64,000 nt of DNA. Origin: a virus. Lineage: Duplodnaviria > Caudoviricetes. The DNA lies in IMG/VR virus record IMGVR_UViG_3300042350_003419, positions 1-64,000 of that record; one strand, written 5' to 3'. The notes under the pieces are model-generated. The model worked only from the letters and a program-made list of their open reading frames with translations. It was not told where the DNA came from and made no database searches. Each line of letters opens with the position of its first letter. Position 1 is the stretch's first letter. Both the position numbers and the translations under genes were made by a program. Shown one piece after another: positions 31,794 to 32,974 of this stretch.

Positions 31794-32507
31794 ATGCGAA
31801 TAGATCTTCATAACTTTTTTAAGCATTATGACGAAAATAACCCAAAGCATGTTGCAGCAGTAGAGCAACTTGAAGTGGATCTTGCGGACAAGAATCCTGA
31901 TTTGATTGATGATACTTCAAACTGGGTTCGTATTTTCAGAACAAGACCAGTTTACGGAACAAAACCAGCAGATCCCGGTGTTCTTAATGTTCCTTACTAC
32001 CCACAAACAGATAATTACAGAGATGCTCAAAGAACCTGTAATTCATCTGCTTGTGCGATGTGTTTAGAATACTTTAAACCAGGGACTCTTCAGGGAACAA
32101 AGGGTGATGACTCTTATATTCAAAAAGTATTTGCAATTGGTGACACCACTGATCATACCGTTCAGACAAAAGTTCTGGAAGGTTATGGAATTAAGTCACA
32201 CTTTAGTTATAATCTTTCTTTTGCTGATCTTGATCGTGAGCTTGCTGCTGGGAGACCCGTTGTTATCGGGATCTATCACAGGGGCACTCTATCTGCTCCT
32301 TCTGGTGGGCACATGGTTGTAGTGATTGGTAAGAGGGGTGAAGATTATGTGGTAAATGATCCTTATGGTTCTCTGAATGATGGATATACTGGTCCCGCAA
32401 CAAATGGTAAGGGTGCCGTCTATAAGAAGTCTGATCTGATGTATCGTTGGTTGGAGAAAGGAAAAGATAAGACTGGATGGGGAAGGATCTTTAATGTAAA
32501 AAAGTAG
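31794..32507 (+). CDS. C39-like cysteine peptidase (endolysin N-part; zero-frame product)
   Basis: LNVPYYPQTDN...TCNSSACAM (Cys), GGHMVVV (His), VNDPYG (Asp). Confidence 0.82.
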   Translation: MRIDLHNFFKHYDENNPKHVAAVEQLEVDLADKNPDLIDDTSNWVRIFRTRPVYGTKPADPGVLNVPYYPQTDNYRDAQRTCNSSACAMCLEYFKPGTLQGTKGDDSYIQKVFAIGDTTDHTVQTKVLEGYGIKSHFSYNLSFADLDRELAAGRPVVIGIYHRGTLSAPSGGHMVVVIGKRGEDYVVNDPYGSLNDGYTGPATNGKGAVYKKSDLMYRWLEKGKDKTGWGRIFNVKK

Positions 32508-32538
32508 AAAGTTCTATTCTGAAAGAAGGAATAGAACT
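32479..32538 (+). promoter_or_regulatory. programmed -1 ribosomal frameshift signal
   Basis: GGAAGG (32481-86), A_AAA_AAG (32498-504), 11-bp hairpin (32510-538). Confidence 0.8.
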
Positions 32539-32974
32539 AATCAAAGAATTTGAAGGATGTCATTTAAAGGCATACCCAGATCCTTTAACTGGAGGACTTC
32601 CAATTACGATTGGATGGGGAAGTACAAGAGACTTTAATTACACTCCATTTAAAAGAGATAAAGTCATTACTCAAGAGTATGCTGACCGTCTGTTAGAGCA
32701 CGATGTATTGAATCGTTTTCTTCCTAAAATTTCTAAAATTCCCTATTGGGGTGAGATGAATGATAATCAAAGAGGAGCATTGCTCTCTTTTGCTTATAAT
32801 CTTGGTGCTGATTTTTTTAACGCTCCTGGATTCAATACGATTACCAAAAAGTTAAAAGAAAAAGATTGGAAAGCAATTCCGGCAACTTTGGAAATGTATC
32901 GCAATCCTGGTAGTAAAGTGGAGGCAGGATTGAGAAGAAGACGAATTGCAGAAGGAAAACTCTGGGTGTCTTAA
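32504..32974 (+). CDS. GH24 (T4-lysozyme-like) muramidase domain in the -1 frame, with no start codon of its own
   Basis: frame opens after TAA 32492-94 and reads VESSILKEGIELIKEFEGCHLKAYPDPLTGGLPITIGWGST...ALLSFAYNLG...GLRRRRIAEGKLW; the ORF track only catches it from TTG 32708. Confidence 0.85.
   Translation, partial: VESSILKEGIELIKEFEGCHLKAYPDPLTGGLPITIGWGSTRDFNYTPFKRDKVITQEYADRLLEHDVLNRFLPKISKIPYWGEMNDNQRGALLSFAYNLGADFFNAPGFNTITKKLKEKDWKAIPATLEMYRNPGSKVEAGLRRRRIAEGKLWVS

Follow-up and report, generated by a model that had tools for sequence, protein, structure and literature searches.

A conserved candidate −1 frameshift signal between the peptidase and muramidase of a cyanophage lysin locus

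The virus record IMGVR_UViG_3300042350_003419 of IMG/VR (Duplodnaviria; Caudoviricetes) was analysed over its positions 1 to 64,000, a stretch of 64,000 nucleotides (nt) referred to here as the window. Our subject is a lysin locus at positions 31794–32974, in which an open reading frame (ORF) for a cysteine peptidase is followed, in the −1 frame, by a complete lysozyme (muramidase) domain without a start codon, and in which the two frames meet at what appears to be a programmed −1 ribosomal frameshift signal. The features on which the argument depends, all on the plus strand, are as follows (aa, amino acids).

31783–31787, plus strand: Shine–Dalgarno (SD) sequence AGGAG of the peptidase gene, 6 nt 5′ of its ATG, read from the sequence
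31794–32507, plus strand: 0-frame ORF of 237 aa, with a helical N-terminal domain and a papain-like C39-type cysteine peptidase, ending in the stop TAG
31794–31949, plus strand: N-terminal domain (residues 1–52), common to both predicted products and, from a dimer fold model, a predicted homodimerisation module
32481–32486, plus strand: SD-like GGAAGG, 11 nt 5′ of the heptamer, seen in the sequence and without specific conservation
32492–32494, plus strand: −1-frame TAA, seen in the sequence, closing the lysozyme frame upstream
32498–32504, plus strand: slippery heptamer A_AAA_AAG, in phase with the peptidase ORF and inside the 13-nt overlap of the two frames
32504–32974, plus strand: −1-frame coding part of 156 codons plus TAA, comprising a short linker and a complete GH24 muramidase (Pfam and alignment with solved lysozymes)
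32505–32507, plus strand: 0-frame stop TAG, immediately 3′ of the heptamer
32510–32538, plus strand: predicted stimulatory stem-loop (arms 32510–32520 and 32528–32538), with an 11-bp stem and a 7-nt loop, 5 nt 3′ of the heptamer
35706–35781, plus strand: tRNA-Lys(UUU), from ARAGORN

A sequence-only reading of this stretch had proposed that a −1 frameshift makes two endolysins from the locus, and the positions it gave for the end of the ORF, the heptamer, the hairpin, the TAA and GGAAGG all match the sequence; the phage tRNA-Lys(UUU) that it named is also present, starting at 35706 and not, as it had it, at 35707.

The AGGAG before the ATG shows that initiation of the peptidase gene is SD-led, and the upstream neighbouring ORF (31547–31792) terminates 1 nt 5′ of that ATG. 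Residues 64–191 of the 237-aa ORF match Peptidase_C39_2 in Pfam (PF13529; 53.3 bits for a cut-off of 24, E = 5.8 × 10−14). A sequence search of solved proteins for relatives of the peptidase returned nothing below E = 0.4 and the matches came instead from a fold search: the top match in the PDB to an AlphaFold model of the peptidase (predicted local distance difference test score, pLDDT, 78.7, from an alignment of 74 relatives) was the C39-like peptidase 3erv (E = 3.3 × 10−5), and other top matches were the peptidase domains of PCAT1 and ComA and a pseudomurein endoisopeptidase. Cys82, Cys87 and His173 are unchanged across 74 sequences, and the substrate would presumably be a peptidoglycan peptide.

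The −1 frame is open from after position 32494 to the TAA at 32972–32974, and it matches Phage_lysozyme (PF00959) across the full profile (1–125 of 125; 83.9 bits for a cut-off of 22.3, E = 1.5 × 10−23). From its residue 10 onward it aligns with residue 7 onward of a solved 149-aa lysozyme (best E among solved lysozymes, 2.9 × 10−14), and the catalytic Glu/Asp/Thr (E..D..T) pattern is present, the Glu codon lying at 32552–32554. The sequence-only reading had described this domain as complete and start-less, which was borne out: no ATG, GTG or TTG occurs in the −1 frame 5′ of the catalytic Glu codon, and the earliest listed start codon in that frame is a TTG at 32708, past the catalytic residues. 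Having no start codon of its own, the muramidase would be made solely as the C-terminal part of a fusion, the two predicted products being 237 aa and 237 + 156 = 393 aa long.

The peptidase ORF ends GTA AAA AAG TAG, and because of the −1-frame TAA at 32492–32494 any shift has to fall within 32495–32507, the 13 nt over which the 0 and −1 frames overlap (an overlap of 13 nt is also seen in most relatives). The 0-frame stop directly abuts the heptamer in 84 of 96 distinct junctions; in the other 12 it lies 3 nt further on. Ungapped stems were sought 3–10 nt past the heptamer and scored as the number of pairs minus half of the G.U pairs. On the two strands of the window there are 55 AAAAAAG sites, and after three of these a stem scoring at least 9 lies within 3–10 nt. 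Phase was checked for two of the three: the lysin site is in phase at the end of its ORF, and the site at 34323, considered as another frameshift candidate, was dropped since it is out of phase in the ORF at 34097–34549. The third lies on the minus strand at 31138.

Homologous loci were collected by scanning IMG/VR with three peptidase queries, from the window, Synechococcus phage S-PM2 and phage ACG-2014f, the best 80 of 540, 420 and 269 relatives, respectively, being used. Adding cultured phages and the window brought the total to 248 sequences, of which 155 were distinct over the peptidase ORF plus 120 nt, with the following layouts.

93 distinct: −1-frame lysozyme with in-phase A_AAA_AAG and no ATG
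7 distinct: heptamer together with an ATG in the −1 frame
20 distinct: lysozyme gene with its own ATG
13 distinct: in-frame fusion (395–407 aa)
19 distinct: lysozyme absent from the flank
1 distinct: peptidase at the contig end
1 distinct: reversed domain order
1 distinct: heptamer absent and GTG on the stop (locus L155)

Among the seven loci with both heptamer and ATG, the ATG overlaps the stop in two (S-SRM01 and the L121 group) and is incidental in the other five; most of the 20 self-starting lysozyme genes overlap the peptidase stop as AAATGA. An in-phase A_AAA_AAG was found in 93 of the 94 distinct loci with a start-less −1-frame lysozyme (the sole exception, L155, reads GCA GCA AAG with a GTG overlapping the stop), versus none of the 41 loci that do not need a shift (20 with their own ATG, 19 lacking the lysozyme, one at a contig end and one of reversed order; search within 25 codons of the conserved Gly-Trp-Gly). 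Since Lys codons elsewhere in these ORFs are AAA in 61% of cases, the fixed AAA AAG after an A-ending codon cannot be put down to constraint on the protein. An open −1 ORF of 155–171 codons with the E..D..T pattern is present in all 97 complete loci of class A, the class defined by the heptamer (three more run off their contigs), with amino-acid identities of 60–100%, and the start-less lysozyme frame is shown, as judged from such comparison, to be under purifying selection. The fusions predicted for class A (384–403 aa) are similar in length to the natural in-frame fusions listed above, and the PHROG 3617 profile (405 positions) has the peptidase at positions 1–235 and the lysozyme at 243–404; by both of these comparisons, the peptidase–lysozyme fusion is a natural unit. 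In a FastTree phylogeny of the peptidase part (155 rows, none dropped), the frameshift class occurs throughout the tree, with the other classes interspersed.

The stem downstream of the heptamer in the window consists of ten Watson–Crick pairs and one U.G pair, with a folding energy of −12.9 kcal/mol (z = −5.2; none of 200 shuffles was equally stable), and its 3′ arm is formed by Gly-Ile-Glu-Leu codons of the first lysozyme helix. Across 96 distinct junctions, a stem scoring at least 8 lies 3–8 nt past the heptamer in 83, with 50 different 3′ arms and loops of 3–44 nt; in the first scan set, a score of at least 8 was reached at 40 of 44 distinct junctions, versus 5.8% of 12,091 control anchors placed within these loci and none of 11 junctions of class B (relatives whose two genes are coupled through an ATGA overlap). 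There are at least three stem families of differing sequence, and in these the 5′ arm, which lies in the variable linker, matches whichever 3′ arm is present in the conserved first lysozyme helix. RNAalifold gave the following for the three families.

Stem family 1 (window and S-PM2 included): 11 sequences, 11 pairs, 3 pairs changed on both sides
Stem family 2: 15 sequences, 8 pairs, 1 pair changed on both sides (AU in 8 sequences, GC in 7)
Stem family 3: 10 sequences, 10 pairs, 2 pairs changed on both sides

In family 1, 99.2% of cells are paired, versus 28–51% when the partners are slid by 1–3 columns, and none of 500 shuffles matched the observed pairing or covariation score; these slid and shuffle controls belong to family 1, and sequences were assigned to the families by stem type, which favours stem detection within each. 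An attempt to fit one consensus stem, column by column, to the whole first set of 44 junctions failed, MAFFT having split the short-loop sequences: measured against the heptamer and the Leu-Ile-Lys codons, the stems differ in pairing register, which points to repeated re-fitting of the 5′ arm. An Rfam scan of 32350–32700 gave two chance-level matches, far under the gathering scores, and no frameshift-element family. Two of the comparative expectations attached to the sequence-only reading, a heptamer conserved across relatives (93 of 94 distinct start-less loci) and a covarying hairpin (compensatory changes in all three stem families), were thus realised, and the contrast with the 41 loci in which no shift is needed favours the programmed −1 shift that it had proposed.

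Cultured phages display the same arrangement. A blastn search of the phage collection gave 59 matching records, Synechococcus phages without exception, and tblastn gave 105. In S-PM2 (70% nucleotide identity to the window), the peptidase ends GCA AAA AAG TAA and is followed by a start-less −1-frame lysozyme, with a stem of 9–11 bp that begins 5 nt downstream and carries compensating changes at two pairs relative to the window; two independent S-PM2 records are identical across the region, and they annotate just a 72-aa ‘putative lysin’ from an internal ATG. In S-SRM01 the heptamer is kept, an ATG overlaps the stop and the hairpin is missing (fold of −1.4 kcal/mol, z = +0.86), which we take as support, the stem being gone where the lysozyme has its own start. 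Elsewhere, ACG-2014f has a single annotated gene of 405 aa, an in-frame peptidase–lysozyme fusion; ME01 has a single annotated gene of 422 aa across the locus, to which the lysozyme queries gave no match; S-CREM1 carries both domains in one gene in reverse order; and DSL-LC02 and DSL-LC03 have the peptidase and lysozyme as two separate genes. The peptidase of PSS2 gp098 occupies the C-terminal half, and the record note calls the gene similar to a putative lysozyme, which suggests a domain order reversed as in S-CREM1, with a putative lysozyme part that the lysozyme queries did not match.

S-CAM7 (NC_031927, locus L249, 1579–1670) reaches the same outcome with another slip site: its peptidase ends GTT TTT TTT CCA CAG TAG, a start-less −1-frame lysozyme comes next, and the candidate site is an in-phase U_UUU_UUU within a T8 run, with a stem of 8 bp (GTAGAACC/GGTTCTAC) after a spacer of 5 nt. 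Two metagenomic relatives (L252 and L253) share this layout, and the S-CAM7 record annotates only a 90-aa ‘lysin’ here. These S-PM2 and S-CAM7 ‘lysin’ entries (72–90 aa) are fragments without catalytic residues, such that public cyanophage annotation is wrong at this locus; the true product at mis-annotated loci is probably a bifunctional hydrolase of 390–400 aa. Similarly, PHROG 10457 and PHROG 7910 (‘endolysin’, ~95 aa) cover no more of the lysozyme than its C-terminal part, about residues 86–159, and seem to have been built from truncated ORF calls such as S-PM2p157.

Two further layouts combine a fusion with a slip site. In the ACG-2014f clade (five distinct sequences; L005 at 2020–2052 and L168–L171 at about 2212–2245), the fusions contain an in-phase A_AAA_AAG, a 5–6-nt spacer and a G+C-rich hairpin of 7–8 bp, and the −1 frame stops one codon past the two Lys codons; this is the dnaX layout, and a −1 shift there would yield a short, peptidase-only product. 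In L145 (one contig) and L167 (four contigs of identical sequence from different assemblies), the run around position 2184 is A7, not A6, and the two domains are therefore fused in frame; the hairpins are strong (−17.6 and −22.4 kcal/mol, respectively), an in-phase A_AAA_AAA is present and the −1 frame ends after 13 codons, the two Lys codons included. L145 and L167 may be natural ‘flipped’ variants, or they may reflect homopolymer errors. The sequence-only reading had named A7 as the sign of a simple in-frame fusion; no A7 appears at the locus in the window, and L145 and L167 are separate sequences that keep the hairpin.

Decoding of the heptamer bears on how readily it might shift. According to one published account (PMC5009743), A_AAA_AAG is the dnaX shift site and is highly shift-prone where one tRNA-Lys decodes both codons, and about half of bacteria are said to have a single tRNA-Lys for both Lys codons. 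The phage tRNA-Lys(UUU) would read both Lys codons of the heptamer and could have a role in the shift.

We consider it probable, at roughly 85%, that a programmed −1 ribosomal frameshift in the layout of the IS3 family (OrfA/OrfAB) yields a peptidase and a peptidase–muramidase fusion from this locus. Ribosomes would reach A_AAA_AAG at 32498–32504 with the 11-bp stem at the mRNA entrance resisting unwinding; the majority would read on to the adjacent TAG and release the 237-aa protein, and a fraction would slip back one base, both Lys tRNAs re-pairing on AAA AAA, and go on via the short linker through the GH24 muramidase to give a 393-aa two-enzyme protein. We infer the occurrence of shifting, its efficiency and the ratio of products, which the sequence-only reading had taken to be fixed, from these signals, and both products would be expected to act on host peptidoglycan at lysis.

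Several points weigh against this interpretation, which is drawn from sequence comparison. The within-class conservation of 100% is circular, class A being defined by the heptamer, and the evidence lies in the contrast between classes; relatedness among the loci means that their counts overstate the number of independent events, and FastTree support is weak at many forks. The stem in the window is rich in A and U and of moderate stability (−12.9 kcal/mol), an ungapped stem scoring at least 8 is missing from 13 of 96 junctions (several of which have 7–8 pairs or possible bulges) and the linkers of some relatives contain GTG or TTG codons. The classical upstream stimulator is not specifically conserved: the sequence-only reading counted GGAAGG among the signal elements, and the hexamer is indeed present at 32481–32486, but it occurs in only 6 of 93 class-A sequences, and predicted pairing with the anti-SD does not differ between class A (−6.3 kcal/mol) and the non-frameshift classes (−6.7 to −7.2 kcal/mol). 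This equality arises because the site coincides with invariant Gly-Trp-Gly-Arg codons, GGAAGG itself being Gly-Arg codons; the hexamer may nevertheless stimulate the shift in the window phage. Finally, a tRNA-Lys(CUU), if the host has one, would reduce slippage on AAG.

The same two products would arise if RNA polymerase added one A in the A6 run, part of the mRNAs then encoding an in-frame fusion for unshifted ribosomes. Homopolymer runs are the substrate of such slippage, relatives L145 and L167 have A7 in their DNA, and the T8 run of S-CAM7 is long enough to make polymerase slippage plausible and a serious alternative there. At the window locus we regard transcriptional slippage as improbable: A6 is short for efficient slippage by polymerase, which needs neither an in-phase A_AAA_AAG, nor a G at its seventh position, nor a covarying stem 3–8 nt downstream, yet all three are conserved. 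A second alternative is translation of the lysozyme on its own, whether from a non-canonical or unrecognised start or by termination–reinitiation past the TAG, with the hairpin regulating initiation. The ATGA-coupled genes of class B, the GTG or TTG in some class-A linkers and the S-SRM01-like loci, which carry heptamer and ATG together, all lend it some credence; however, no ATG, GTG or TTG lies between the −1-frame stop and the catalytic Glu in the window, in S-PM2 or in stem families 1 and 2, the junction sequences compared have no near-cognate start codon at a conserved position, the linker GTG and TTG codons fall, where present, within the 3′ arm of the hairpin, and independent initiation leaves the strict in-phase heptamer unexplained. 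We hold this to be very improbable.

The most far-fetched of the alternatives is that the arrangement is an artefact or a product of decay, with A6 an assembly error for A7 or the lysozyme a frameshifted pseudogene. Homopolymers are error-prone, and A7 was read in two related lineages. Against this, A6 with the −1 layout is common to 93 distinct sequences from many assemblies, the two S-PM2 records do not differ over the region, and contigs from three DNA runs (X1, X5 and X8, of 2016, 2020 and 2024) extend across the junction and show neither differences nor indels, which answers the concern about the A run raised in the sequence-only reading and leads us to exclude sequencing error; these runs may include the window's own DNA source and are not fully independent, the independent support coming from the distinct metagenomic sequences and S-PM2. 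A contig from an RNA run (X15) derives from a class-B relative and is uninformative on this locus. A pseudogene was likewise rejected, all 97 complete lysozyme frames being open with the catalytic pattern intact, and stop-codon readthrough was rejected by the sequence, since readthrough of the TAG remains in the 0 frame and the lysozyme lies in the −1 frame.

Under programmed frameshifting, the two products would have the first 52 residues of the peptidase in common. A Pfam scan of the whole 237-aa ORF placed no family over residues 1–52. A homodimer model of the 237-aa product scored 0.62, versus 0.01 for the best of three controls, with an interface of residues 1–52 only, at least 77% of contacts shared between runs and partner pLDDT of at least 81; this passes the mark of the tool, which was reached by 20 of 30 proteins whose solved structures are pairs of a single kind of chain and by 1 of 23 solved as lone chains, calibration counts that apply only roughly here since our own alignment was supplied. 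The model suggests that the N-terminal 52 residues dimerise, and the short and long products would then be able to pair through this common domain, a lead for the heteromeric lysin that the sequence-only reading had held possible. A homologue of the peptidase N-domain (~50 aa, helical; 52% identity, E = 5 × 10−16) also heads the lysozyme where this is a gene apart, in DSL-LC02 and DSL-LC03 (L004 at 2360–2530 and L006 at 2767–2937). The common lysozyme genes of class B (L063 type) start with a different domain of ~55 aa, for which BLASTP gave no match to the peptidase N-domain and a profile–profile comparison gave a weak one (probability 11%, E = 0.0028). This pattern fits, on the strength of the model, a peptidase and a muramidase that are joined either covalently or via a common dimerisation module.

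A broader scenario can be drawn from these elements, and we offer it as distinctly tentative. The dimerising N-terminal 52 residues would give mixed dimers of peptidase-only and peptidase–muramidase chains, and recoding would set the ratio of a two-enzyme lysin whose two chains are kept by interchangeable means: an IS3-like −1 shift in the window, S-PM2 and ~93 others; a dnaX-like shift in those fusions that retain both hairpin and slip site (the A7 variants and the clade of ACG-2014f); U_UUU_UUU in S-CAM7; and two genes that each have the N-domain. A one-base change in the A run would flip the first two of these layouts into one another, and the phage tRNA-Lys(UUU) could adjust the ratio in the course of infection, serving as a lysis timer at the level of translation.

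The proposed arrangement has precedents in several known systems. In IS3-family elements of the OrfA/OrfAB layout (IS911 and IS3), a start-less downstream ORF is expressed solely in fused form, through a −1 shift near the end of the upstream ORF; an RNA structure on the 3′ side promotes the shift, and the two products have their N-terminal part in common. The lysin locus likewise has A_AAA_AAG near the end of the upstream ORF, a start-less downstream ORF and a 3′ hairpin; unlike IS3, which joins the DNA-binding and catalytic parts of a transposase, it joins two peptidoglycan-hydrolase domains in a lytic phage, and its stimulator would be a simple hairpin with a 3′ arm in the conserved first lysozyme helix. 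With tau/gamma of Escherichia coli dnaX, as described in PMC5009743, it shares the heptamer, a stem-loop a few nt downstream, an optional SD-like element and, as predicted, a ratio of two proteins from one gene that is set by the shift, but the shifted product would be the long one in the window and is the short one in dnaX, and the SD element is not conserved in the lysin family. Frameshifts in phage tail assembly chaperones (of the lambda G/GT type) and capsid genes are also conserved −1 shifts with a short and a C-terminally extended product; those serve virion assembly, whereas the lysin locus encodes a cell-wall hydrolase. In multimeric endolysins (of the PlyC and CD27L/CTP1L types), a second in-frame start adds a free C-terminal binding domain. 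There, too, one locus gives two domain-sharing polypeptides that may assemble (assembly being, in our case, a fold model), but the short product of the lysin locus is the N-terminal part and the mechanism would be recoding.

The sequence-only reading had known of no frameshift described for a cyanophage lysin, and a literature search, supplements aside, found none either. The PRFect paper names ‘lysins’ among the genes known to contain a frameshift, citing Shearman et al. 1994 on a Lactococcus phage lysin. The mechanism is canonical; the novelty lies in the class of gene concerned, in how widely the family extends and in the faulty annotation of the model phage S-PM2.

The surroundings of the locus contain further features. 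Beginning 350 nt downstream, a 233-aa ORF (33319–34020) matches Phage_lysozyme2 (PF18013, E = 2.8 × 10−17) and has a hydrophobic N-terminus, making it a second wall-hydrolase candidate; at the matching position, S-PM2 has an annotated ‘lipoprotein precursor’. Just past the end of this ORF, a run of ten G, then CCCTCC and then T7 (34041–34067) has the appearance of a terminator; so long a homopolymer might be vulnerable to assembly error. Immediately 5′ of the lysin locus is a SegE-type GIY-YIG homing endonuclease gene (31198–31653; PF19835, E = 1.6 × 10−53), and homing endonuclease genes are also found beside the lysin locus in S-SRM01, S-CREM1 and ME01; such flanking genes may help to explain the frequent exchange of lysozyme modules among relatives. 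The window has 18 tRNA genes, 17 in a cluster at 35299–41437 and one at 17670.

Together, these results would extend conserved −1 frameshifting, a property of few phage gene classes, to a lysis or cell-wall enzyme, and they provide an unusually rich case of natural covariation, with several unrelated stems at one site. The claim of frameshifting is directly testable, S-PM2 and Synechococcus WH7803 being a laboratory system. The viruses concerned are abundant freshwater and marine cyanomyoviruses that control picocyanobacteria, and their lysin family constitutes a natural experiment in which fusion, frameshift and two-gene solutions replace one another.

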